The notes beneath the pieces were generated by a model. That model was not told the origin of the DNA. It searched no databases and worked only from the letters and a program-made list of their open reading frames with translations. A stretch of DNA of 64,000 bases from a virus (lineage: Duplodnaviria; Caudoviricetes), in IMG/VR virus record IMGVR_UViG_3300031949_000024, positions 5,678 to 69,677 of that record, one strand, 5' to 3'. The position numbers were made by a program, and so were the translations under genes. Of this stretch, positions 6,225 to 20,067 are shown one piece after another. Positions within the stretch are counted from its first letter, which is position 1. Each line of letters starts with the position of its first letter.

Positions 6225-7670
6225 GTGTTGGATGCCACCTCCGCCGCCTTGTGGGGGCAGGCTGCCAGCACGTTCTCTCGGTCGGCGACGGCCAGGCAGT
6301 TTTTGAGCCCCGGCGACCTGGCCGCGGAGATGGATCCGCGGTCGGTGCGTACGCCGGCGTTGGATCTGATCGATGAGGCGTTGGTGGAGTGCGCCGACGG
6401 GCTGTGTGACCGGCTGATCATCAGCATGCCACCACAAGAGGGCAAGTCGACCAAATGCACGCGAAGGTTCCCGCTCTGGCTATTGCGGCGCAAACCTGAC
6501 ACGCGTGTGGTGGTTGCCTCCTACGAGCACGGGGTGGCCCGGCGTTGGGGCCGGGCGGTGCGCAACGACATCGCCGAACGGCCAGATCTGGGCCTTGCTG
6601 TCCGTCAGGACACGTCCGCGGCGCATGAGTGGCAGTTGGATGGGCACGAGGGCGGCATGTTCTGTGTCGGCATCGGCGGGGCGCTCACCGGACGTCCGGT
6701 CGATGTACTTCTGATAGATGATCCGGTAAAAGGTCCGAAAGAGGCCGAATCGCTCACGTTCCGGGATACGGCGTGGGACTGGTGGGAGTCGGTCGGCTCG
6801 ACCCGACTCGCCCCTGGTGCGTTCGTCGTGTTGGTCATGACTCGCTGGCACGAGGACGACCTAGCCGGTCGGCTGCTACGCGAGGAGCCGAACACGTGGC
6901 GGCTACTCAATATCCCGGCGCAGGCCGACCACCGGCCCGAGCTCGGCGAGGTCGATCCGTTGGGTCGCGAGCCGGGACAGTTCATGGAGTCGGCACGTCG
7001 GCGCACGGTGGAGCAGTGGCAGCGGATCCGCACCCAACGCGGCACCCGCACCTGGAACGCCCTGTATCAGGGTCGCCCGTCACCGGGTGAGGGTCTGGTG
7101 TTCCGCCGGGACTGGTGGCAACGCTACGAACGGCCGCAGTGGATCGAAACCGACGGCGTCTGTTCGGTGCTGTCCTTCGACGAGGTCATCCAGTCGTGGG
7201 ACATGGCGTTCAAAGACACCGACGGGGCCGACTTCGTGGTCGGGCAGGTGTGGGGCCGTCGCAGCAACGACGCCTACCTGTTGGATCAGGTCCGGGGCCG
7301 GATGTCGTTTGTGGACACCTGCATGGCGGTGCGAACGTTGTCGGCCCGCTGGCCGCAGGCGCACGCGAAGCTGGTGGAGGACAAGGCGAACGGCACGGCG
7401 GTCATCAACCAGTTGCGCACGATGGTGCCTGGCCTGATCCCGGTCGAGCCTGAGGGCAGCAAGGTGGCGCGGGCGTCGGCGGTGTCGCCGTTCGTGGAGG
7501 CCGGCAATGTGTGGCTGCCCTCGCCCGAGGTGGCGCCGTGGGTGCAGGCGCTGATCGAGGAGGCGTCGAATTTTCCGCTGTCGACGCATGACGACCAGGT
7601 GGATGCGTTGTCGCAGGCGTTGAACCGGCTGCTGCTCAACGCAGTCCGCCCCCGCGTGAGGTTCATGTGA
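6225..7670 (+). CDS. terL: Terminase large subunit
   Basis: Walker A MPPQEGKS, Walker B LLIDDPVK, coupling motif VMTRW, RNase H-like SWDMAFK...HDDQVDA. Confidence 0.95.
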   Translation: MLDATSAALWGQAASTFSRSATARQFLSPGDLAAEMDPRSVRTPALDLIDEALVECADGLCDRLIISMPPQEGKSTKCTRRFPLWLLRRKPDTRVVVASYEHGVARRWGRAVRNDIAERPDLGLAVRQDTSAAHEWQLDGHEGGMFCVGIGGALTGRPVDVLLIDDPVKGPKEAESLTFRDTAWDWWESVGSTRLAPGAFVVLVMTRWHEDDLAGRLLREEPNTWRLLNIPAQADHRPELGEVDPLGREPGQFMESARRRTVEQWQRIRTQRGTRTWNALYQGRPSPGEGLVFRRDWWQRYERPQWIETDGVCSVLSFDEVIQSWDMAFKDTDGADFVVGQVWGRRSNDAYLLDQVRGRMSFVDTCMAVRTLSARWPQAHAKLVEDKANGTAVINQLRTMVPGLIPVEPEGSKVARASAVSPFVEAGNVWLPSPEVAPWVQALIEEASNFPLSTHDDQVDALSQALNRLLLNAVRPRVRFM

Positions 7671-7680
7671 GGAGTCCATT

Positions 7681-7917
7681 GTGGCCAGTGCGGGACAGAT
7701 CGACATGAAGTTTCAGCTGACGGCGACGGTGCTCGCCCCGGGCGACACGCTCGTGGTGGCCGTGTCGCGGCGGCTGACCGATTGGGAACGGGATCAGATG
7801 GCGGCCGACTTCCGCACAAACCTGCCCGGCGTGAAGGTGGCGCTGATCGAACAATGCTCCGGTCTGGCCACCTATCATCCCGACCCGGACGTGCCAGACC
7901 TGCCGACGCTCACGTAG
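7681..7917 (+). CDS. Hypothetical protein
   Basis: GAGGAG SD; 78 aa ORF. Confidence 0.55.
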   Translation: MASAGQIDMKFQLTATVLAPGDTLVVAVSRRLTDWERDQMAADFRTNLPGVKVALIEQCSGLATYHPDPDVPDLPTLT

Positions 7918-7928
7918 GGGGGGCTGCG

Positions 7929-8462
7929 GTGGCCGCTCGGGTCCTGTTTGCGGGAGCGTACCGGCCGGCGGATGTGGTTGAGGCGCTGCTTCACCCGCAC
8001 AACCACCCGGGTCACGCGAGCCAGAAAAGTCACGGCCGCAAGGGCAATACGGTCCCGTCCGAAGGCCCCGTTGACACGCCAATCATGCGGCCCGGAGTTG
8101 GGCACTATGAGCCGGGGCAAACCTACTTGCGGGTTCAGTCAGCAAACCGGGACTTGACTGATCTGCTAGATCCCGAGCACGTCTCCTATTCGTGGGATAG
8201 CGAGGACGTTTTCGACAGGGGTACTTCGACGGCAGAAACGCCCGAGGAGTTAGCCGAATATCTGGCGCAGACCGGGATACCTATTGGTCTGGGTGATTGG
8301 GTGATCGTTGAGGTAGCGGGTAACGATCTAGGGCCAGGACGGGACCGACACCTCAATGAGCGCCTTGTGGACGTGGATCAGATCGTGTCGGTGCGTCCCC
8401 TCGACGATGAGTTTTTCGGCATGATTGGCGACGCTTACGAACGGCTTAACGAGGGGGCCTGA
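7929..8462 (+). CDS. Tagged effector 1: NHPGHASQKSHGRKG tag plus a possible ART-like (R-S-E) domain
   Basis: GTG 7929 follows a G-run SD. Tag at 8001-8045. YLRVQ...GTST...NERLV spacing resembles an R-S-E ADP-ribosyltransferase fold (weak). Confidence 0.55.
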   Translation: MAARVLFAGAYRPADVVEALLHPHNHPGHASQKSHGRKGNTVPSEGPVDTPIMRPGVGHYEPGQTYLRVQSANRDLTDLLDPEHVSYSWDSEDVFDRGTSTAETPEELAEYLAQTGIPIGLGDWVIVEVAGNDLGPGRDRHLNERLVDVDQIVSVRPLDDEFFGMIGDAYERLNEGA

Positions 8463-8638
8463 TGCGTTCCCTTGTTGCTTTGGCCCGTCAACGTCTGGCC
8501 CGGCCCGGTTCCAGGCATGCCCTGTTGCAGGTGGCCGGGTTCGGCTGCCTCGCGGTGGCGGCCGGCATGTGGCTGCTGCCCGTCGGCATCGCCGTCGCCG
8601 GGGTGTCGCTGCTCGTCATGTCCGGACTGCTGGAATAG
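8462..8638 (+). CDS. Small membrane protein of the kind usually found just upstream of actinophage portals (not in the ORF track)
   Basis: MRSLVALARQRLARPGSRHALLQVAGFGCLAVAAGMWLLPVGIAVAGVSLLVMSGLLE*; two hydrophobic segments. Confidence 0.7.
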   Translation: MRSLVALARQRLARPGSRHALLQVAGFGCLAVAAGMWLLPVGIAVAGVSLLVMSGLLE

Positions 8639-8642
8639 CGCC

Positions 8643-9503
8643 GTGCACTGGTCGGGCCGGTTCGCCGACGAGGTGACAGCCTCGCGTAGCCAACTCACCC
8701 GCGCGCGGGCGCTGCTCGAGCAGGTCCCGCGTAACCACCCCGGCCACCCGGACCAGAAGTCCCACGGACGCAAGGGCGGCACGAAAGCCGACGCGCAGAC
8801 CGCCGACCTGCCGCGGGTCGAAAACCCGGAAGACCGGCGGGCACAGGCCATGGGCACCAACCCCGGCTATCTCGGACCGTACACCGGCCCAGTCACCCCG
8901 AAGATCAAACGGGACGGCGGCGCCAGCTACGCCGAGAACTGCAGCCGGGTCGTCATCGCATATGAGATGCGCCGACGCGGCATCGACGTGACCGCCGGTG
9001 CAGGCTCTCCTGTCGGCGACACGATCGCCGCCTACGTGCACACGTTCCGGCAGGATGGAAAGTATCCGCTCCGGCTGGCGGAGGATCTGTCCCGCGACAT
9101 GTCGGTGCGGCAGGTCGCCACCGAGGTGGAGTCCTGGCCGCACGGGGCGCGGGGCATTGTCACCATTCAGGGCCACACCCTCAGCGTCGAACGGGACACA
9201 AAAACGGGCAAGGCCGTTTTCGTCGATGCGCAGACGGCGAAGAAGAAAAGTCCAATTTTGACCCGGGCACAGTTGGAGGCCCGGATGAAGTCGCGCGGCG
9301 CCCCGACCGACAAGTGGACGGCTGTGGCCCGCGTGGACGATCTTGACCTGTCTGACCATGGCCTGCGCTATGTCGAATCGCCGAGGCTGAGCCTCGCCGA
9401 CGGGCAGGTCGGGAAGACGTCGTTCCCGCAGGACCCGGACAGTCCGACGTTCTCGAGCTTTGAGCAGATAGCGGCCCTGCCCCCGGACGACAGTTACCCG
9501 TAG
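8643..9503 (+). CDS. Tagged effector 2: papain-fold toxin (Tox-PL-like) with NHPGHPDQKSHGRKG tag
   Basis: Catalytic-type motifs ENCSRV (Cys), GHTLSV (His), FVDAQT (Asp/Gln). Start reassigned to GTG 8643 because 8462-8638 is a separate gene. Confidence 0.75.
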   Translation: MHWSGRFADEVTASRSQLTRARALLEQVPRNHPGHPDQKSHGRKGGTKADAQTADLPRVENPEDRRAQAMGTNPGYLGPYTGPVTPKIKRDGGASYAENCSRVVIAYEMRRRGIDVTAGAGSPVGDTIAAYVHTFRQDGKYPLRLAEDLSRDMSVRQVATEVESWPHGARGIVTIQGHTLSVERDTKTGKAVFVDAQTAKKKSPILTRAQLEARMKSRGAPTDKWTAVARVDDLDLSDHGLRYVESPRLSLADGQVGKTSFPQDPDSPTFSSFEQIAALPPDDSYP

Positions 9504-9512
9504 GGGGCTGGG

Positions 9513-10445
9513 ATGGACTTCGACGCTGCCCGCGACGTGGTACGCCGCCGCCTCAACGACCTGTATGCCGGCGAGCGCGAACATCCGGCCGTGTTGCCGT
9601 ACGGGTTTGACACCGGCGGCTCGTGGGCGCCGATGGTCGACTGGCGTGGTGTGACCGGCGTGTACGTCTATCTGGTCGACAAACAGTCGGGTGGGTTGAC
9701 GCCGGTCAGCTTCCCGGAGTTTGTTGACCTGCCCGACCCGTCCCGGGCCGGGGAATGGCCCAACGCCGGGCCGGCGGCGGCTGTTGGAGTAGCCGTGCGC
9801 TGCTGGCAGGGCCGGATGGCCGACGACGTGGCCGGCACGAGAGCCATGGTGGGGCGGGCGCAGGTGCTGCTGGCGCAGACGTATCACCGTGATGCCGATG
9901 GCCAGTTCGCCTCGGGCAACGGCGGCGGGGCCGCCGACGGTTCGGACGGTGAAGGGGAAGGCGGCTCGCTCGATGAGGGCGAGGGTGAATACGGATACGG
10001 CACGGCACCCGATGGTTCTTCCTATTCGGAGTTTGACGTTGACGAGGCCGGCAATCCCCGATTCTCCAGTGAGTACCGGGCGAAGTACGGCCCGATCAAC
10101 AGCGATAGTGCCATCGGGGCCGGGCTGACATTCGTGGCCCCCGAGAAGGGCAAGTTGCACATCGCAGATGATGCGCTGGGCGCCAAACAGCGTCAGGTAG
10201 TGCAGGAGTTCACGAACGCCGAGGCCCGCGATCTGGCCGATGGCATCTACTCCGTCTACTCCGGAGAGTCGGCTTCGGTGGCCACGAAGTCGGGCGTGAA
10301 GGTGGCCCCTGCTGGCCCCCACCCAACGCAAGACGGGGTCAATGTCACGTGGAGCAACGGACGCCGGAGCACCTTTGACGGTGAGGCCGGAAACGACGAG
10401 GCCTTCGAGCTTCAGGAGTCGCTGCTGAATGCAAGCGGGACTTAG
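9513..10445 (+). CDS. Imm35/YrhB-like immunity domain fused to tagged effector 3 (TYHRDADGQFASG plus unknown domain)
   Basis: N-terminal ~80 aa (FDAARDVV...GSW...YLVDKQSG) resembles immunity proteins that neighbour papain-fold toxins. Tag at 9879-9917. Confidence 0.6.
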   Translation: MDFDAARDVVRRRLNDLYAGEREHPAVLPYGFDTGGSWAPMVDWRGVTGVYVYLVDKQSGGLTPVSFPEFVDLPDPSRAGEWPNAGPAAAVGVAVRCWQGRMADDVAGTRAMVGRAQVLLAQTYHRDADGQFASGNGGGAADGSDGEGEGGSLDEGEGEYGYGTAPDGSSYSEFDVDEAGNPRFSSEYRAKYGPINSDSAIGAGLTFVAPEKGKLHIADDALGAKQRQVVQEFTNAEARDLADGIYSVYSGESASVATKSGVKVAPAGPHPTQDGVNVTWSNGRRSTFDGEAGNDEAFELQESLLNASGT

Positions 10446-10453
10446 GGGGGCTG

Positions 10454-11854
10454 ATGCGTTCCCTGCTCGCCCCCCTGTTCAACAAGGCCCCTGCCTATGT
10501 CGGCGCCCAGGCCGGTACTGGCCTGTTCTCCCGGCTGATGGGCCGCAACGACGCCGCCGCCCAGATGGCCGCCATGGGCAGTGTCGGCACCCTGTTCAAC
10601 ATCGTGTCCACCACCTCGCAGGCTGTGGCCGAGGTGCAGTGGAAGCTTTGGCGTAAAGCCAAGTCGGGCAAGACGGAGGACCGCACCGAGGTCACCTCCC
10701 ACGCCGCCTTGGACATTTGGAACAAACCCAACAAGTTCATGACCGGCCAAGAACTGCGGGAGTCGGTGCAGCAGCATATCGACCTGACCGGTGAGGGTTG
10801 GTGCTACGTCGGCCGCAACGACCGGGCCCGTAGCCTTCCGCTGGAACTGTGGCCGATCCGCCCTGACCGGATCGCCCCGGTCCCGTCGGTGACCGACTTT
10901 ATCCAGGGCTACATCTACACCACGCCCGACGGGCAGGCGGTGCCGTGGGAGACCGACTCGGTCCTGATGCTGCGCATGCCCAACCCTTTGGACCCGTACC
11001 GCGGTATGGGGCCGGTGCAGTCGATCCTCACCGAGCTCGACTCGTCGAAGTACAGCGCCGAGTGGAACCGCAACTTCTTCCTCAACAGCGCGGAGCCGGG
11101 CGGCATCATCGAAGTCCCGAACCGGTTGGACGACGGCGCCTGGCGGGAGATGGTCACCCGTTGGCGCGAACAGCACCAAGGGGTGGCCAACGCGCACCGG
11201 GTGGCGGTCATCGAGCAGGGCAAGTGGGTCAACCGGACCTTCAGCATGCGGGACATGCAGTTTGTGCAGTTGCGGACGGTGGCGAAGGAAACCATCCGGG
11301 AGGCGTTCGGGTTCCCCAAGTTCGCCGCCGGCGAGGTTGAAGACGTCAACAGGGCATCAGCGGACGCGTCGGCGGTGTGGTTCGCGAAGCGGCTGACCGT
11401 GCCACGGCTGCAACGGTGGAAGGGCATGGCCAACAACGATTTTCTGCCCCTGTTCGGCGGGGATCCCAATCTCGAGTTCGACTTCGAGTCTCCCGTCAGC
11501 GAGGACGAGGAGGCCGAGAACGCCGAACGCGGCAGCAAGGCGACCGCGGCGAAGACGTACATTGACGCCGGGTTCACCGCCGAGTCGGTGGTGGAAGCCC
11601 TGGACCTGCCCGACGCGTTGGTGTGGGAGAAGCCCGAACCGCCCGCCCCGCCGCCCCCCCCGCCGGGTGCTCCGGCCGGTCCGGCTGTGCCTGGCGAAGA
11701 CCAGCCGCCCGACGTTCCGGCCAAGGTTCCGGCCGCCGACGATGCGGTGGCCAACCTGACCCGTGCGGTGCTGATGTTGGCGGAGGAGCGGGCCGGGCAC
11801 CGCGATGATGACCGGTCGCCTGGTGGCCGCACGTTTCGCGACTACTGGGGCTGA
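10454..11854 (+). CDS. Portal protein (HK97 family)
   Basis: HIDLTGEGW, LWPIRPDRI, YRGMGPVQ, FFLNSAEPGG, N..RVAVIEQG...F..LR, AFGFP motifs. Confidence 0.93.
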   Translation: MRSLLAPLFNKAPAYVGAQAGTGLFSRLMGRNDAAAQMAAMGSVGTLFNIVSTTSQAVAEVQWKLWRKAKSGKTEDRTEVTSHAALDIWNKPNKFMTGQELRESVQQHIDLTGEGWCYVGRNDRARSLPLELWPIRPDRIAPVPSVTDFIQGYIYTTPDGQAVPWETDSVLMLRMPNPLDPYRGMGPVQSILTELDSSKYSAEWNRNFFLNSAEPGGIIEVPNRLDDGAWREMVTRWREQHQGVANAHRVAVIEQGKWVNRTFSMRDMQFVQLRTVAKETIREAFGFPKFAAGEVEDVNRASADASAVWFAKRLTVPRLQRWKGMANNDFLPLFGGDPNLEFDFESPVSEDEEAENAERGSKATAAKTYIDAGFTAESVVEALDLPDALVWEKPEPPAPPPPPPGAPAGPAVPGEDQPPDVPAKVPAADDAVANLTRAVLMLAEERAGHRDDDRSPGGRTFRDYWG

Positions 11855-12542
11855 CAACCGCAGCTACAAGCGTGACAAGGACGGCAAGTTTTCGTCAGGC
11901 GGCAGTTTCGAAAGCCGGGTCGCCGGCGCCGCCGCCGGAGAAGGGGCTCTGCGTGCGGCTCCGTTGAATCGGGATACCGAGGATCATCTGACCGGCGACT
12001 TCCCCGGGTTTGATGACTTTGAAGGTACGGGAGTGCCCGGCCATGTCATCGGCAACAACATCGCGCACTACGGCGACAACGGCCACGCCAGCGTGAACGG
12101 CGTGCTTCGGAGCGGTGGCGATCCAATGCACCCTCCTGAGTCGCTACCTGGTGTGCTTCACTACTCCGCAAAGTCTGTCACGGATCAGGTGACCAGCCTT
12201 GACGCAGCTATGTCACGGTCGCAGCTAACCGCAGACGTCGTTGTCCACCGTGGCGTTGGTGACCCCGCCAAAGTCTTCGGCGCCACATCCGACCTGACGG
12301 GCCTTCGGTTCCGCGATCACGGGTATGCATCAACGACGACCTCCGGCGCGGCCAGCGGTGAATTCACTGGGAACCGAACGGGCGTCCAGATGAGGATCCT
12401 TGTGCCGAAGGGTACTGGGGCAATCAGCTCTTTTGGCCTTGACCGAACTGAGTTATTGCTTGACCGCGATCTGAGTTTCGTTGTACACCGCGACTATGAC
12501 GTGGGCGGGATTCGTACCTTGGATGTCGAGGTCGTTCCGTGA
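11805..12542 (+). CDS. Tagged effector 4: VIP2-like ADP-ribosyltransferase
   Basis: VVHRG (Arg), GYASTT (STS motif), MRILVPKGT, RTELLLDR (catalytic Glu). Tag NRSYKRDKDGKFSSG at 11856-11900. Confidence 0.85.
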   Translation: MMTGRLVAARFATTGADNRSYKRDKDGKFSSGGSFESRVAGAAAGEGALRAAPLNRDTEDHLTGDFPGFDDFEGTGVPGHVIGNNIAHYGDNGHASVNGVLRSGGDPMHPPESLPGVLHYSAKSVTDQVTSLDAAMSRSQLTADVVVHRGVGDPAKVFGATSDLTGLRFRDHGYASTTTSGAASGEFTGNRTGVQMRILVPKGTGAISSFGLDRTELLLDRDLSFVVHRDYDVGGIRTLDVEVVP

Positions 12543-13423
12543 CTTTCGCTGATCGGCTTATCGACGCGGGAGACTTTCCCGTTGAGATACTTGCCAAGTC
12601 CGTTGACGACGGCGGCGATGTCCACCACCTGGAGAACCGCACCCACGGCCTGCCGACGAACCTCGCCCCCACCGACATCGACCTGTCGAAGGTGCAACGG
12701 GACTGGGAACGCCAGTTGGACCAGCTGCTCAAGCAGTGGTTCACCGTCACCGAACACCAACGCGACCAGATTTTGGACAAGGTCCGGGCCGCCATCAACA
12801 ACAACGACCTGGCCGCCCTGGCCGCGCTCAACGTGTCGTCGGCCGAGCAGGCCAACATCCTCACCGCCGCTATGACGCAGATGGCACTGAATGCTGCGCA
12901 GCACGTCGTGGACGAGGCCGCGCGGCAGGGTGTGCGCACCGACCCGGTGGCCACCGACACGCACCGGTTTGCCACTACGGCGGTTGCGTTGGCCGCATTG
13001 TTGACGGCGGCGCTGACGAATTCGGCTGGCCGGGAGGCGCTGCGTCGTTGGTCGCCGAGCACCAGCGGCGACGACGTGACCCGTGCGGTGGAGGGGCATC
13101 TCGCGTCGCTGTCGACGTCGTTTGTGGAAGCGCATCTTGGTGGGGCGTTGACGGCGGCGCAGAACACGGGCCGGTTGGAGACGATGCTCGCGGCGCCGAC
13201 GGCAGCAATATATTCGTCAGAAATGATGGATAAACGGACATGTAACCCATGCCGGGTCGTTAACGGCAAGTGGATCGGCAACTCAGATGACCCGGACATC
13301 GTCGCGAAGATCGAAGCCGTCTACCCGAACGGCGGCTACGTGAACTGCGAGGGCGGGGTGCGCTGCCGTGGCACAACCGTCTATGTCTGGCGCCCCGAGC
13401 AGGTCCCTGCAGCAGGCGCCTAG
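12539..13423 (+). CDS. MuF-like head morphogenesis protein with a short N-terminal extension (possible ART immunity peptide)
   Basis: AAQNTGR, SSEMMDKRTCNPC, GGVRCRGT are MuF-type C-terminal motifs; position between portal and protease. Confidence 0.8.
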   Translation: MTFADRLIDAGDFPVEILAKSVDDGGDVHHLENRTHGLPTNLAPTDIDLSKVQRDWERQLDQLLKQWFTVTEHQRDQILDKVRAAINNNDLAALAALNVSSAEQANILTAAMTQMALNAAQHVVDEAARQGVRTDPVATDTHRFATTAVALAALLTAALTNSAGREALRRWSPSTSGDDVTRAVEGHLASLSTSFVEAHLGGALTAAQNTGRLETMLAAPTAAIYSSEMMDKRTCNPCRVVNGKWIGNSDDPDIVAKIEAVYPNGGYVNCEGGVRCRGTTVYVWRPEQVPAAGA

Positions 13424-14984
13424 CTTCTTCGGCCTGGTCGCCACCGCCCGGGCACGGCTGGACATCCTGGACCGTCAGTACAAGCGCGACAAGGACGGGC
13501 GTTTCGGGTCCGGCGGCGGCATGCACCCGGCCATCGCCGCCTGCTCGACCACCAGCGAAGTCGAAGCTGTCCTGTCGACCGAGCTGTACGACGTCACCGG
13601 CCGGCACGTCACCGTCCACCTGACCGGCCTCGGCGTCGAGGTGGCACGGGTACACGCCGAAGGCGTCCTGCGGGCCATGAAACAGTTCCCCGACACCGAC
13701 CTGCAAACCATCAGCACGTTCGGCCCGGGCGGCCAACACAGCAGCGATGTCGTCGCCGGCACAGACCACAGCGGTTCCTACGCCGTCACCACGCACCGGC
13801 CCGGCACCCGTGGTTCCGACATCTACTTCAACACCCGCTACGGCGACATCGACACGTTGACCGACATGGTGCGTCAGAACGACGCCGTCGGTTGGCTGTC
13901 CGGACAGTCGGGCGACCTGTCCCGGATGGCCTCGCATGAAGTCGGGCACGCCTGGGGCAACACACTCAAGCCCGGCGCCGCCCGACAGGCCGTCGGAGAA
14001 CTGGCCATTGACCGGGGCCTCGTCGATGCGGTCGTGGTGCGAGAAGTGTCCGGCTACGCCAGGAAAGACCTCGGGGAACTGATCGCCGAGTCGTTCAGTG
14101 ACGTCGTGTCCCGCGGCGACGGCGCGTCGCAGCTCAGCAAGGATGTTGTCGACACCGTCGGCAGCCAGTTCGAGGCCGGCCTGCAGTACCCGAACAACCA
14201 GTCCCGCTTCTTCCACCTGTTGGCGGCGGCCCGGAACCGCACCTACAAGCGGGACGCCGACGGACGGTTCGGGTCCGGTGACGGCGGGCCGCGCGGCATC
14301 CGTGACACGTTCGCGCAGGCCAAGACGATCACTTCGCTGGAGTTGGCCGCCGAGGGCGAGCTCGGCTCGATCCTGGGCCAGCGCGTCGCGGTGAAGCTCG
14401 CAGGTCTGGAGATGGACGCGGCCCGGGCGCACGTGGAAGGCATCGCCCGGTCGGCCGAGCTGTACCCGGGCACCGATCTGATCAGCGTCACTTCGTACGG
14501 GCCGCGCGGCCAGGTGTCGGACATTCCCGGGCAGCAGCCCGGCGTGCACGACAAGGTCTGGGGTGTCACCTCCTCGGTGGCTGGCCGGCCCGGGGCGGAC
14601 ATCTACCTGAACACGCGCATCGACGCGCCGAAGATGCGGCGGGTCACCACCAAGGCGGTCGCCGAGGGTGTGGTGGACGGCGACATGTCCGACATCACGT
14701 GGACCGGGTCGCACGAGATGGGCCACGCTGCGGCGTCGATGATGCGCCGCGGCGACCCGCAGCAAGGTGCGGTCAGGATCGCCACCGAGACGGCTGGCGG
14801 TAGCGTCGAGCACGTCTACAACGAGCTGCGCACGACGGTTTCGCGGTATGCGCTTACTCCCGGCGGCGATGAACTGATCGGGGAGGCTACCGCCCAGGTG
14901 GCATCATTGGGTTCGGCGGCGTCGCCGATATCGAAGGCTGTCGTCAAGGGCATGCAGGACAACTGGGACGAGTGGAGCATCTGA
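13368..14984 (+). CDS. Tagged effector 5: tandem duplicated zincin-like metallopeptidase (start uncertain, 13368 or 13383)
   Basis: Two repeats, each with a YKRDxDGRFGSG tag, HExGH (SHEVGH, SHEMGH) and a downstream ELI[AG]E. Confidence 0.75.
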   Translation: MAQPSMSGAPSRSLQQAPSFFGLVATARARLDILDRQYKRDKDGRFGSGGGMHPAIAACSTTSEVEAVLSTELYDVTGRHVTVHLTGLGVEVARVHAEGVLRAMKQFPDTDLQTISTFGPGGQHSSDVVAGTDHSGSYAVTTHRPGTRGSDIYFNTRYGDIDTLTDMVRQNDAVGWLSGQSGDLSRMASHEVGHAWGNTLKPGAARQAVGELAIDRGLVDAVVVREVSGYARKDLGELIAESFSDVVSRGDGASQLSKDVVDTVGSQFEAGLQYPNNQSRFFHLLAAARNRTYKRDADGRFGSGDGGPRGIRDTFAQAKTITSLELAAEGELGSILGQRVAVKLAGLEMDAARAHVEGIARSAELYPGTDLISVTSYGPRGQVSDIPGQQPGVHDKVWGVTSSVAGRPGADIYLNTRIDAPKMRRVTTKAVAEGVVDGDMSDITWTGSHEMGHAAASMMRRGDPQQGAVRIATETAGGSVEHVYNELRTTVSRYALTPGGDELIGEATAQVASLGSAASPISKAVVKGMQDNWDEWSI

Positions 14985-15256
14985 TGGTCAGCCGCCCGAT
15001 ACCGCAGTGCCTGACCTGCGCCCACTGGCAGTCGCCGTTGGGCCGCACCGACGAGGATGCCCGTGGTGAGAAGCCGATCCAGGTGTGCAAGGCGTTCCCG
15101 TTGCCGGCCGGTATCCCCGACGACATTTGGTGGAACCGCGTCGATCACCGCACCCCGCATGCCGGCGATCAGGGCATCGTGTGGGAGGCCGACGACGACG
15201 TGCGCAACGGCGGCAAGATGAAGTTTCCCGACTGGGCCATGAACACCGCCACCTGA
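14984..15256 (+). CDS. Putative immunity protein (CxxCxH...CxAFPxGIP...DH..P..GDxG)
   Basis: QCLTCAHW, CKAFPLPAGIPDDIW, DHRTPHAGDQGIVWE; a pattern I recall following phage head-associated toxins. Confidence 0.6.
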   Translation: MVSRPIPQCLTCAHWQSPLGRTDEDARGEKPIQVCKAFPLPAGIPDDIWWNRVDHRTPHAGDQGIVWEADDDVRNGGKMKFPDWAMNTAT

Positions 15257-15587
15257 CCTAGCCCACCCGATTCACCTGCAGCCCGGATGACCTCCGGGCT
15301 GTTTGGCATGCCCGAACGGAGGCGCGCCCATGCAGTTCTGGGCGCCGACCTTCGCCCTTCCGGGCTTGGCGTGCTTGGAGCCATCAGGCAAGTACCCCAA
15401 GGACCGACCGGTTCCATGTCGACCACGATCACGCCTGCTGCCCTGGATCCCGAAGCTGTGGAAGGTGCACGCGGGGCCTGCTCTGCCACGCCTGTAACAC
15501 CGCGCTCGGCAACTTCAAGGACAGCCCCGAGATCCTACGGGCCGCGCTTCGCTACCTGTCGAGCAATGGAGTGTGGGGTGACAACGA

Positions 15588-17041
15588 TGAGTAGGGATCC
15601 AGCCCAGGCCCATACCTGGTACCGCATTGAGAACAAGGCGGACACCCGGTCAGCGGCTATCTACTTGTACGACGAGGTTGGTTCCTGGGGAATCGCCGCA
15701 AGCCAATTCGTCAAAGAACTCCAAGACCTTCGTGCATCCAAAGTTGACGTCCACGTCAACTCTCCTGGGGGCGAGTGCTATGAGGGCCTCGCTATTTTTA
15801 ATGCGCTCCGGAATCACAAGGCAGAGATCACCGTCTACATCGACGGCCTCGCCGCTAGCGCAGCGTCCTTCATCGCGATGGCCGGCGACCGGATCGTGGC
15901 CGAACGCAATGCGACGTTGATGATCCACAACGCACACGCCGTCGGGGTGGGCGACGCCGGCGACATGCGCAAACTGGCCGACATGCTCGACCGGATGACC
16001 GACACCATCGCCAGCATCTACAGCGACCGGGCCGGCGGCACCGTCGCCCAGTGGCGGGCCCGCATGGCCACCGAAACGTGGTTTTCGGCGGATGAGGCGC
16101 AGGCGGCCGGGCTGGTCGACGAGGTGGCCTCAACCCCGGCACCGAAGAGCATGCCCCGCAACACATGGGATCTGTCGATCTTCAACTTCGCCGGCCGGGA
16201 CGCCGCCCCCGACCCGTTCGCCCCACTCGCCGAAGCAATGCCTATGCCGCCGCGCAAGAAGACGCCCGACATGCCCGCGGATATGCCGATGCTCGCCGTC
16301 GGCGACCGCGTGCAGGTGGCCGGAACACCACACGAGCCCGGACAGGCCACCGGCACCGTAGCCGAGGTCGAGCACGGGCCCGCCTACGGCATCCGCTTCG
16401 ACGGCGGCGGAGACCCGGGCGGCGACGTGCACCGCTGGTATGTCGCCGCTGAACTGGCCCCAGCGGGCGCGGCGGCCACAAACCGCGCCGAGGCAATCCC
16501 GGTGGCCGAGGCAGTCCCGGTGGTGGTCGCGGAGGATGTCCCGCTCGTCCTCGCCGCGTTCGACCCGGCCCAGTTCCGCGACGCCGTCAACGCCGCCTCA
16601 GTGCTGCCGTTCGACCCGGCCGACTTCCGCGACGCTATGGCCAGCCTGGCCCACGACGCACCCGCCCCGCCGGCCAACACACACCGGACCGTCGACCTCG
16701 GGCCGCAACCCGAGGCGGAACCCGCGGCGGCTCCGGCCAACCCGTGGAATGTCGTTCACGACCACGTCCACGGCCTAGCCCACGAAGCCCCGGCCCCACC
16801 AACAATCCAGCCCACACCCGTCGACCTCGGGCCGCTACCGCAACCGGCCGAACCGGTACCTGAACCGCCGCCGCTGAACCCCTGGGACCAGCTGCGGGCC
16901 GCAGTCCGCATAGCCGCCAACAACGCACCCGCACCACCACAACCCAACAGCACCACCACCACCGAAAGCCCGGCCGAGGAGCCGGGCTTTTCTATGGACG
17001 CGCCAGCGTTCCGGACTGCTCTGAGGAGGGCAAAGCTGTGA
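15588..17041 (+). CDS. ClpP-type (S14) prohead protease with a long Pro/Ala-rich scaffold-like C-terminus
   Basis: IYLYDEVG, VHVNSPGG, DGLAASAASFIAMAG (Ser), LMIHNA (His), ETWFSADEA. Start ATG 15588 (MSRDPAQAHTWYRIEN). Confidence 0.92.
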
Positions 17042-18510
17042 GCAATAGGATCCGACTCTCCGCCGGGCAGCGCGACGCGCTGACACGACGGGGCCTCAAC
17101 CCGGACGACCTGGGCCGCATCCTCAACCGCCAGGCCGCACCGCCGGTGCCGGCCGACAACGAGCTGAAGATGACCGTCCCCACCTCGGCCGCCGAGCTCG
17201 AGGCGATGCTCGGCGACGGCAAGAAGATGCAGGCCATCTTCGGCACCCCGCACTTCGGCGAGTTCATCACCAACTACGCCCGCGTCGTGCACGAGAAGGA
17301 CCTGTCCATCGCCAACCAGGTGCAGGAGCAGGTCCAGCGGGTGCTGGCCGACTGGCTGCGCGAAAACCAGCCCGAGGGCATCGACCGTCTCGACCTGACT
17401 CCCCGTCAGGTGGTTGCCACCGGCGACGCCCGCAACCACGTCCACAACCCGCGGGCCATGGGTGCGGTCCTCGACAAGGACTTCACCGGCCCCACCGCCA
17501 GCGCCGACTACTTCGCCACCATCTGGCACATGCAGAACCGGACCGCCGACGTTCAGGCCAAGCTGCAGCGGGTCCGCAACGCATTCTCGTCCACCGTGCC
17601 GTCCGAGGGCGGGTTCCTGATCCCGGAGACGCTGCGCTCGGAACTGCTGCGGGTGTCGCTGGAGACGTCGATCGTGCGCCCCCGCGCGCGGGTCATCCCG
17701 ATGGAGACGCTGCGGGTGCCGTTCCCGGCCATCGACTCGACCAGCAACGTGTCGTCGGTGTATGGCGGCATCGTCGGCTACTGGACGGAGGAAGGCGCGG
17801 CGCTGACCGCGTCACAGGCCGCGTTCGGCCGCATCGTGTTGGATGCGAAGAAGCTGACCGCCTACACCGAGGTCCCCAACGAGCTCATCTCCGACTCGAT
17901 CGTCTCGTTCCAGGCGTTCCTGGACCAGATTTTCCCCGAGGCGTTGGGCTTCTACGAGGACGACGGTTTCATCAACGGGTCCGGTGTGGGTGAGCCGCTC
18001 GGCTGGCTCAACGCCGCCGCGGCCGTGGAGGTCACGAAGGAGTCGGGGCAGCTCGCCGACACCATCGTGTGGGAGAACATCGTCAAGGCCTACGCCCGGA
18101 TGCTGCCGTCCTCACTCGGCCGGGCAGTGTGGGTGTGCTCGATCGACACGTTCCCGCAGCTGGCCACGATGGCCCTGTCGGTGGGTACCGGCGGGTCGGC
18201 GATCTGGCTCAACAACGGTGCGGTCGGTCCGCCCATGACGATCCTCGGCCGGCCGGTGATCTTCACCGAGAAAACCCCGGTTGTCGGCGACGCGGGCGAT
18301 ATCAACTTCGTCGACCTCGGCTTCTATCTGATCGGCGACCGGCAGGTCATGAGCGCGATGTCCAGCCCGCACTTCAAATTCCAGAATGACCAGACGGCCT
18401 ATAGAATCATCGAGCGCGTTGATGGTAGGCCGTGGTTGCAAAGCGCAATCACGCCCAAGAATGGCGGCAGCACGCTCAGTCCTTTCGTGAAAATCGCGGC
18501 CAGGGCGTAA
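17038..18510 (+). CDS. Major capsid protein (HK97 fold) with N-terminal delta domain
   Basis: SEGGFLIPE, WTEEG, KKLTAY..V.NEL..DS, FINGSGVGEPLG, ILGRPV, FQNDQTAYRIIERVDG. Confidence 0.95.
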   Translation: MSNRIRLSAGQRDALTRRGLNPDDLGRILNRQAAPPVPADNELKMTVPTSAAELEAMLGDGKKMQAIFGTPHFGEFITNYARVVHEKDLSIANQVQEQVQRVLADWLRENQPEGIDRLDLTPRQVVATGDARNHVHNPRAMGAVLDKDFTGPTASADYFATIWHMQNRTADVQAKLQRVRNAFSSTVPSEGGFLIPETLRSELLRVSLETSIVRPRARVIPMETLRVPFPAIDSTSNVSSVYGGIVGYWTEEGAALTASQAAFGRIVLDAKKLTAYTEVPNELISDSIVSFQAFLDQIFPEALGFYEDDGFINGSGVGEPLGWLNAAAAVEVTKESGQLADTIVWENIVKAYARMLPSSLGRAVWVCSIDTFPQLATMALSVGTGGSAIWLNNGAVGPPMTILGRPVIFTEKTPVVGDAGDINFVDLGFYLIGDRQVMSAMSSPHFKFQNDQTAYRIIERVDGRPWLQSAITPKNGGSTLSPFVKIAARA

Positions 18511-19116: not shown

Positions 19117-20067
19117 ATGGCATCGACCCAGGCCAGGTTTTCGGCCTTGTTTTCCCGCAGGACCCCCGGCGGGGTCTACACGATCGCCGACATCGAGCAG
19201 GCGCCCGGCGATGTGTGGTTCGTGGACGGCGCCACCGGCTCTGACGCGGCCGGCTACGGCCGCACTCCCGACGCACCGTTCGACACCCTGTCGTACGCGT
19301 TCAGCTCGGACAGTGTGACCTCTGGCGATGTGGTGTATCTGATGCCCGGCCACACCGAGACCATCGGCGCAGCGGGCAGCATCGCCATGGACATTGCTGG
19401 TGTGCGGGTTGTGGGACTCGGTAAGGGCTCGTCCCGGCCGACGTTCACGTGGTCGGCGACCGGGTCGACGTGGACGATCGCGGGCGCGAACTGCACGGTC
19501 GACAACGTCCTGTGCACCACGACTGGCGTCATCAACGTCACCGCCGGGATTCTGGTCACCGGCGCGGATGTGTCGATCCTCAACGTGGAGGGCCGTGATG
19601 GTGCGGCTGATTCGCAGTTCATCGACTTCCTTGGCTTCGGCACCGGCGCGGCCCGCGGTCTGGTGAAGGCGTTCCGGTTCCTCGGGCATGCCACCGGTGA
19701 CGCGAACGCGTCGGCGTGCCAGGTGACCGCGGTGGTGGACCAGTTCCGGGTGGAGGACTTCTGGGCGATCGGCCTGTTCGCGGCGGCCGGTTTGGAGACC
19801 ACGGCCGCCAACACGAACATGCTCGCCAAAGGCGTTTACGTGGAGCAGTTGCATGCCACGACAGACGCCGGGGTGACCCTGAACGCGTCAACGACCGGCC
19901 TGATGATCGACTGCTATGTCAAGTCGGCGACGAACGACGCCGCCGGCTACACCGCCGCACTCGTCGGCGCCGCGGTGGGCTGGTACAACCCGCGCGTCGT
20001 CAACCTGGCAGGCGAGCAGGGTGGTCTCACCAGCACCACCTGGGGCGTTGCATCGGCTGCGGCATGA
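19117..20067 (+). CDS. Beta-helix (pectin-lyase-like) virion protein
   Basis: WFVDGATGSD..GRTPDAPFDTL opening motif; periodic G-D/N-V-T-I-xN repeats. Confidence 0.6.
   Translation: MASTQARFSALFSRRTPGGVYTIADIEQAPGDVWFVDGATGSDAAGYGRTPDAPFDTLSYAFSSDSVTSGDVVYLMPGHTETIGAAGSIAMDIAGVRVVGLGKGSSRPTFTWSATGSTWTIAGANCTVDNVLCTTTGVINVTAGILVTGADVSILNVEGRDGAADSQFIDFLGFGTGAARGLVKAFRFLGHATGDANASACQVTAVVDQFRVEDFWAIGLFAAAGLETTAANTNMLAKGVYVEQLHATTDAGVTLNASTTGLMIDCYVKSATNDAAGYTAALVGAAVGWYNPRVVNLAGEQGGLTSTTWGVASAAA

Follow-up and report, generated by a model that had tools for sequence, protein, structure and literature searches.

The 64-kb window analysed here, part of a 69,677-base IMG/VR viral record that CheckV rated complete (IMGVR_UViG_3300031949_000024), has a guanine-plus-cytosine (GC) content of 66% and carries, between its terminase and prohead protease genes, a head block whose accessory open reading frames (ORFs) contain a recurrent short peptide. 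This peptide, which we refer to as tag A, has the motif R/Q-x-Y-K/H-R-D-x-D-G-(K/R/Q)-F-x-S-G and is about 14-15 residues long. By six-frame translation, the full motif was found four times, always on the plus strand and in the frame of ORFs 9513-10445, 11805-12542, and 13368-14984 (table 1). The sequence-only reading of this DNA had reported four copies in these three ORFs, and its sites were right, with exact positions off by 0-6 nucleotides (nt). A degenerate DNA pattern for Y-x-R-D-x-D-G-x-F matched four times in the window, where 100 dinucleotide shuffles gave an expectation of 0.00, and exactly four times in the whole 69,677-base record; the loose core D-x-x-G-[RKQ]-F-x-[STGA] occurred within the window only at the four tag A sites. 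The codons at Y, R, D, G, and F vary among the four copies, which indicates a conserved peptide rather than a DNA repeat.

Each of the four copies is followed by a Gly-rich stretch (SGNGGG, SGGS, SGGG, and SGDGG) and then by a differing or duplicated effector, as had been noted from the letters. The 538-residue protein encoded by ORF 13368-14984 is internally duplicated (36% identity, E 2e-35), and the alignment of its two halves begins at the tag; thus, the internal copy does open the second peptidase repeat. Together with a second motif, tag B, described below, tag A heads six of the six accessory modules between the terminase and the protease, which bears out the suggestion that every domain has its own tag. 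The MuF-like protein, the portal, a Cys-rich ORF, the protease, and the capsid protein of the window have no tag.

Table 1. Genes of the head block and copies of tags A and B in the 64-kb window
Feature	Position	Strand	Remarks
Large terminase (TerL)	6225..7670	+	Upstream limit of the cargo block
ORF with tag B copy 1	7782-8462	+	Between terminase and portal
Tag B copy 1, NHPGHASQKSHGRKG	8001..8045	+	In ORF 7782-8462
ORF with tag B copy 2 and a weak papain-like (Gln_amidase) match	ends at 9503	+	
Tag B copy 2, NHPGHPDQKSHGRKG	8733..8777	+	Heads the weak papain-like (Gln_amidase) module
Cargo ORF: constant N-terminal domain, tag A, variable acidic domain of unknown function	9513..10445	+	
Tag A copy 1, QTYHRDADGQFASG	9876..9917	+	About residue 122 of ORF 9513-10445; Gly/Asp/Glu-rich linker after it
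Portal protein	10454..11854	+	PF04860
Cargo ORF: ADP-ribosyltransferase behind tag A, with an 18-residue leader that overlaps the 3' end of the portal gene	11805..12542	+	PF03496, E 9e-10
Tag A copy 2, RSYKRDKDGKFSSG	11859..11900	+	Residue 19 of the ADP-ribosyltransferase ORF
MuF-like head protein, no tag in the window	12539..13423	+	
Cargo ORF, 538 residues: two units of tag A plus zincin-like domain	13368..14984	+	
Tag A copy 3, RQYKRDKDGRFGSG	13473..13514	+	Residue 36 of ORF 13368-14984
Tag A copy 4, RTYKRDADGRFGSG	14238..14279	+	Internal, start of the second zincin repeat
94-residue Cys-rich ORF	14972-15256		Between the zincin ORF and the protease
ClpP-type prohead protease with long C-terminal extension	15287..17041	+	Bounds the cargo block on its downstream side
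HK97-type major capsid protein with N-terminal delta-like region	17038..18510	+	

We compared the window with its close relatives at the nucleotide level. Homology of 92-98% ends 3-7 nt past the tag and is regained in the region where the next gene begins. In the relative L016, whose portal is 97% identical to that of the window, homology spans 8500-9924 at 92.5%, ends 7 nt after copy 1, restarts at 10444 just ahead of the portal start, continues to 11903 (3 nt after copy 2), and restarts at 12646 inside the MuF gene; homology to a further relative, L012, breaks at the identical position 11903. The ADP-ribosyltransferase (ART) modules of the window and L016 are only 39% identical, and the L016 orthologue of ORF 9513-10445 has the same N-terminal domain and tag followed by a zincin instead of the acidic module. 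Because homology breaks at the tag, these alignments indicated that tag A is the 5' boundary of swappable cassettes and that related phages exchange what lies downstream of it, a breakpoint pattern that, to judge from the sequences compared, is the behaviour of a polymorphic-toxin junction. The sequence-only reading had missed both this role as a recombination boundary and the exchangeability of tag A with tag B.

Tag B has the consensus K/N-H-P-G-H-x-D/S-Q-x-x-H-G-R/G-K/R-G and the form NHPGHxxQKSHGRKG in orthologues. A tag B protein of locus L076 and a tag A protein, P0035, are homologous over the pre-tag segment and the zincin (E 1e-27), and in their alignment tags A and B fill the identical 15 positions. 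Similarly, the pre-tag segment of ORF 7782-8462 is identical at 18 of 22 positions to that of protein P0014, where tag A comes next. These alignments indicated that the two tags are interchangeable in place. Tag B is far commoner than tag A, with at least 119 stretches in viral contigs of 44-69% GC, about half of the listed matches being chance frames; its loci include L076, L084, L098-L113, and L136, and within a protein it stands either 30-60 residues after the N-terminus or in the interior of a polyprotein, the longest of which has 2,095 residues.

We addressed the level at which tag A is conserved by collecting 78 distinct nucleotide versions from relatives. The Arg at -2 was kept in 77 of them and the Gly residues at +12 to +14 were conserved, neither being forced by the search pattern; the flanking Arg was encoded by six codons, including AGA and AGG, and the Ser at +10, a position only loosely constrained by the pattern, used both TCN and AGY. 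Since the conserved residues use many synonymous codons, these sequences indicate that selection acts on the tag peptide.

In the AlphaFold model of the double-zincin protein, the segment ahead of the tag is helical and the tag shows a single bridge between its Arg and Phe positions; the tag and this helix have a predicted local distance difference test score (pLDDT) of 60-69, versus more than 90 for the zincin domain that starts about 15 residues later. In P0047, a fusion of MuF, tag, and a further domain, the tag-bearing linker was modelled at pLDDT 29-42 from a shallow alignment. On these models, tag A is a flexible linear motif outside the folded domains, and the idea that it forms part of the zincin fold was rejected on account of the downstream start of that domain. 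An ESX YxxxD/E, Tat, or Sec signal was rejected on reading the sequence, the spacing or the hydrophobic region being unfit, and a PDB sequence search with the tag profile gave no match.

The modules behind the tags are of several kinds. The ART module after copy 2 matched PF03496. In the zincin-like repeat, H-E-x-x-H and a downstream Glu are invariant in 23 homologues; the fold of the domain was predicted with pLDDT above 90 over most of its length (mean 84.7), and the model gave weak Foldseek matches to the zinc metallopeptidases 4l7a, PPEP-1, and the catalytic domain of lethal factor (probability at most 0.96, E 4e-3 and weaker). On the strength of this model, the module is named zincin-like and is not a member of a named family. 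The acidic module after the tag in ORF 9513-10445 has homologues and no family. The zincin is the commonest partner of the tag.

A census with a 36-column tag profile yielded 60 clusters at E <=1e-3 among 1.84 billion representative proteins, and a word-indexed search yielded 30 matches among 5.8 billion clusters; all of the census proteins are metagenomic. Most are 100-300 residues long with the tag within the first 60, and some are polyproteins with 2-4 tags, one per module. Pfam names were obtained only for ART (10), Gln_amidase (2), and MuF (1) among the 60 clusters, and the cargo types under tag A comprise ART, zincin, papain-like, and J domains and proteins with an isoelectric point (pI) of 12. 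The architectures include MuF-tagA-X (P0047), MuF-tagB-X-tagA-X (P0057), and tagA-zincin-tagA-zincin-MuF (P0073), and the zincin is combined with papain-like or ART domains in P0004, P0074, and P0009. At the DNA level, the pattern Y-K-R-D-x-x-G-x-F-x-S-G was found in 44 stretches of IMG/VR and in 14 stretches of 185,579 species genomes (596 Gb), of which only about three are credible; six low-GC matches of the first DNA scan were judged to be chance, with no linker after the motif. These scans indicate that tag A is phage-specific, with cellular genomes almost free of it. MuF toxins belong to temperate phages or prophages; for the tag-bearing phages, the near-absence from species genomes argues against frequent lysogeny, no integrase search having been made.

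The tag-bearing contigs fall into two clades. Those of class 1 are relatives of the window phage, with tags between the terminase or portal gene and the protease or capsid gene; five relatives that were counted have 3-6 copies per genome, grouped in the structural region, and two of these are complete genomes with terminal repeats. Class 2 is another siphovirus-like clade, with a phrog_145/DUF4055 portal and a PF04233 MuF, whose nearest cultured portals are those of cyanosiphoviruses (37-38% identity). In class 2 genomes, 3-5 genes each begin M-A-R-T-Y-K-R-D-x-x-G-R-F-A-S-G-G-G; the initiation codon lies exactly at the tag in 44 distinct starts, with an in-frame stop 1-14 codons upstream in 38 of the 44. 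The class 2 tagged proteins are rich in Lys, Arg, and Ala with a pI of about 12, and some of them end in a J domain that bears the HPD motif. Searches of this clade for the ClpP-type (PF00574) and S78 (PF04586) head proteases found neither. The tag peptide is kept in two clades without nucleotide similarity to each other. Some of the tagged genes in class 2 contigs L023, L044, L048, and L049 are divergently transcribed from a common intergenic region; few of the class 2 tagged genes have a Shine-Dalgarno sequence, and several have CTGAGGCA about 20 nt upstream.

The MuF profile matched the fetched loci of 19 tag-bearing contigs, and PF04233 was present in four of five further tag-bearing records, the exception being a 39%-complete fragment. 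MuF is therefore encoded in 23 of 24 assessable tag-bearing records, a count that overstates the number of independent observations because the contigs fall in two clades. MuF was found in about one third of phage genomes (Jamet 2017, PMC5576092). Gp9 of Mycobacterium phage Tierra is an actinophage MuF fusion without the tag. Full-length cargo had no match among cultured phages, nor did tblastn of the short tag peptide against them, in which a 14-residue motif cannot reach E <10 in 2.3 Gb. The sequence-only reading had pointed to a motif census in phage head modules, and the spread of the tag through the relatives and a second clade fits a label for virion-carried cargo.

Tag A also resembles a wider group of tags. 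The exact pattern N-P-Y-H-D-x-x-G-R-F occurs in at least 120 IMG/VR stretches of 36-67% GC; as with tag A, these tags stand close to the N-terminus or at module junctions and lead into a flexible linker, and they head ART-PolyVal, 2H phosphoesterase/Acb1-like, and XkdF-protease domains, the tag itself being covered by no Pfam model. The two types have in common the core D-x-x-G-R-F-x-S/T, the architecture, and the gene neighbourhoods; however, the residues before the Asp are Y-K-R in tag A and N-P-Y-H in the other. In the window, the flexible leader ahead of the head-block cargo modules contains the core D-x-x-G-[RK]-F-x-[ST], and the intermediates NPYRDRLGRFASG and NPNHDARGRFGSGG share polyproteins or loci with tag B. 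With a hidden Markov model of 139 NPYHD tags, two of the four window tags ranked top among 1,173 six-frame ORFs, but with E values of 1.7-2.4. We consider tag A, on this comparison, a probable diverged variant of the NPYHDxxGRF-type family. A broader and distinctly more tentative idea is that tags A, B, and NPYHDxxGRF might be versions of one portable label with which many tailed phages load arbitrary proteins into the capsid for delivery with the DNA; if so, the cargo would comprise enzymes, toxins, chaperone hijackers, and DNA-coating proteins, and any tagged protein would become phage cargo.

The head block has much in common with two described systems. MuF toxins embody the concept of head delivery, the toxins being predicted to be packed and delivered (Zhang et al. 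2012, PMC3482391; Jamet et al. 2017, PMC5576092). As in these systems, the tagged genes lie beside the portal, a MuF protein is present, and ART, metallopeptidase, and papain-like domains vary; a single cargo gene separates the portal gene from the MuF gene in the packaging module. In contrast to MuF toxins, the MuF ORF of the window ends before the tag-zincin unit, which lies in another frame across a 56-nt overlap, so that the two are separate polypeptides, cargo also lies upstream of the portal, and the tag heads free proteins without a MuF domain; the one-polypeptide arrangement was found in the relatives P0047, P0057, and P0073, which are true MuF-cargo fusions. A small immunity ORF is expected downstream of a MuF toxin, and the 94-residue Cys-rich ORF follows the zincins in the window and in L005, L015, L034, and L055. 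The gene after this conserved ORF encodes the protease in L005, L034, and L055 but the portal in L015; the ORF had no family match, and candidate roles for its product are those of an immunity protein, an inhibitor, and a small head protein.

Phage-type polyvalent proteins have been characterized as multi-domain effectors in portal-terminase modules (Iyer, Burroughs, Anand, de Souza, and Aravind 2017, PMC5512222). The window and its relatives agree with them in the zincin, ART, papain-like, and MuF repertoire and in having, among the relatives, 2-4 modules per polypeptide, and the 538-residue double zincin places two effector domains in one polypeptide beside the portal-terminase genes; unlike polyvalent proteins, the modules of the window mostly lie on genes of their own and are tagged individually. 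No such junction or leader motif is mentioned in the searchable text of PMC3482391, PMC5576092, and PMC5512222, full-text literature searches for the motif strings returned nothing, and no paper or Pfam model for tag A was found. As a sequence feature, tag A is well supported, and it appears to be an undescribed leader or junction tag within known MuF/polyvalent cargo systems.

Comparable short peptides are found elsewhere. The capsid targeting sequence (CTS) of T4 is an N-terminal peptide of about 10 residues that is removed at L/I-x-E by gp21; its carriers are the internal proteins IPI-III and Alt, which are packaged into the head and then injected. In functional analogy, tag A is a short peptide common to unrelated, partly basic or ADP-ribosylating proteins; unlike the CTS, it has an unrelated sequence and no L/I-x-E site, the head protease is ClpP-type, the tag is also found internally, and the phages are siphovirus-like with HK97-type heads. 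In secreted polymorphic toxins, a short peptide such as VENN in CdiA marks the exchange point of variable C-terminal cassettes; tag A differs from such junctions in sequence and delivery route, and it is repeated per protein and occurs at native N-termini. RHS/YD repeats are tandem Y-D-x-x-G-R-L hairpin arrays that form a shell, and this identity was rejected, the tag copies being single and isolated and giving no Pfam RHS or PDB sequence match.

The tag is the sole feature common to all of these proteins, and therefore the most economical reading is that it serves entry into or exit from the procapsid. We propose, at roughly even odds (about 0.5), that tag A is the portable leader of capsid-carried, injected cargo in a MuF polymorphic-toxin/polyvalent-protein system. 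A tag with the consensus of about R-[TSQ]-Y-K-R-D-x-x-G-[RKQ]-F-x-S-G-G-G would lead swappable cargo in the head block of MuF-encoding tailed phages and, serving as a handle, would bring late-expressed effectors and basic internal proteins into the procapsid. It would act by binding a putative conserved head component, for which the capsid interior, portal, MuF, scaffold, and DNA are candidates, and it may also lead the cargo out of the capsid with the DNA. The effectors would be ART, zincin and papain-like peptidases, and J-domain proteins; late-expressed ARTs and peptidases would have no obvious use in the dying producer cell, and the pI-12 proteins would fit internal DNA-associated proteins. 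SPP1 gp7, a MuF-family protein, is described as a head component (PMC5576092, PMC5512222). A cargo-label function is thus plausible on the sequence evidence, and several points weigh against it. Both the encapsidation and the binding partner are putative. A loading signal would be redundant in proteins that are fused to MuF, and the single-chain fold of P0047 showed no docking of the tag onto MuF in cis, at pLDDT <50 and with a shallow alignment. The two clades differ in portal family and in head protease, which is different or was not detected; therefore, a common partner is not obvious. Finally, the tag was found in no cultured phage.

The same peptide might instead be a processing site, at or just before which the head protease or a co-encoded zincin cuts polyproteins, with stand-alone copies as inherited junctions. 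This would account for the tags in disordered inter-domain linkers of polyproteins with 2-4 modules and for the frequency with which the zincin accompanies the tag, and zincins have been proposed to process polyvalent proteins (Iyer et al. 2017, PMC5512222). We nevertheless consider it unlikely. In the 44 class 2 genes the tag stands at residue 2-3, and with the upstream in-frame stop in 38 of them there is nothing to remove; because these genes begin directly M-A-R-x-Y-K-R-D, the second clade has no need of the proteolytic exposure of the peptide that the sequence-only reading suggested. The lack of both PF00574 and PF04586 from that clade also speaks against processing, and on the same ground a ClpP-type protease was rejected as the common partner or cutter. 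Mimicry of the capsid cleavage site (N-R-T) was rejected as well, and likewise counts against processing, since the site is neither conserved among the relatives nor co-varying with their tags; moreover, at least 12 conserved positions are long for a cleavage site. Processing is thus weakened by the native N-terminal copies, and may yet apply to the polyproteins.

Two further explanations bear on the same observations. The tag could act at exit or after injection, either as a leader that threads the cargo, along with the DNA, through portal and tail channel or as a motif that binds a conserved host hub. A cut upstream would leave the tag N-terminal on each mature module, like the native N-terminal copies; a flexible leader with a Gly linker is suited to threading, and the identical tag is found in clades with different head proteins. 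We regard this as rather doubtful, since a motif for a host hub should also turn up on early proteins whereas all copies lie in structural-gene blocks, and since the low-complexity proteins of pI 12 fit an internal DNA-associated role better than that of host-targeted enzymes. It is most improbable that the tag is a recombination junction only, that is, a conserved coding patch for in-frame cassette exchange that encodes a functionless peptide. The homology breakpoints do coincide with the tag, and downstream modules differ between phages with 97% identical portals; however, nucleotide identity is not conserved, with six Arg codons and both Ser families in use, the same peptide is kept in two clades without nucleotide similarity, and tag B, a different but equally conserved peptide, substitutes in place. 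The codon data contradict a purely recombinational role.

To our knowledge, the head loading of non-structural proteins in siphovirus-type phages is largely obscure outside T4, P1, and P22, and a modular tag on every cargo module makes this question directly testable. If tag A is the cargo leader that we propose, it would allow injected effectors and anti-defence proteins to be found in metagenomes by sequence and, if portable, would be a tool to load proteins into phage particles. The breakpoints, for their part, show how such phages swap weapons in frame.

The closest cultured portal to that of the window is that of Streptomyces phage Dagobah (46% identity), whose head module (L057, 1-14275) consists of TerL, portal, ClpP-type protease, and major capsid protein only; MuF, the cargo genes, and the tag are absent. 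On the basis of this bare module, the MuF and cargo set of the window looks like an insertion into a conserved head-gene backbone. The species-genome scan yielded a credible tag copy adjoining a MuF gene in a Micromonosporaceae metagenome-assembled genome; this copy and the likeness to the Dagobah portal suggest that the host of the window phage is probably an actinomycete.

The last 50 nt of the portal gene (11805-11854) are shared with the ART ORF, and the last 56 nt of the MuF gene (13368-13423) with the zincin ORF; both downstream ORFs are in the +1 frame, and L016 and L005 show the same arrangement. A portal-ART or MuF-zincin frameshift fusion was considered and rejected, since the ORFs have plausible starts of their own, no common slippery motif was found at the overlaps, and the genes are separate in L012. 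The protease ORF as listed begins about 100 codons ahead of its ClpP domain; in the L016 orthologue the start corresponds to a position near 15587, where the true start in the window probably lies, and 15287-15587 may be non-coding or hold something else. The C-terminal extension of this protease contains Y-G-I-R-F-D-G-G-G-D (around 16340-16400, residues about 355-370), which bears a faint resemblance to G-R-F-x-S-G-G-G, the second half of tag A; this stretch sits in an apparent small beta-barrel, and the likeness is probably a coincidence. An 87-nt tRNA-Val (GAC), of odd length and possibly false, was called by ARAGORN at 19212-19298, just 3' of the capsid gene. In ORF 8472-9503, a mechanical call, the first 55 or so residues are rich in Cys, Pro, Trp, and Arg and look out of frame; the start codon of the L016 orthologue is a GTG that corresponds to about 8637, and a 58-residue hydrophobic ORF in another frame (8462-8638) occupies the gap before that position.

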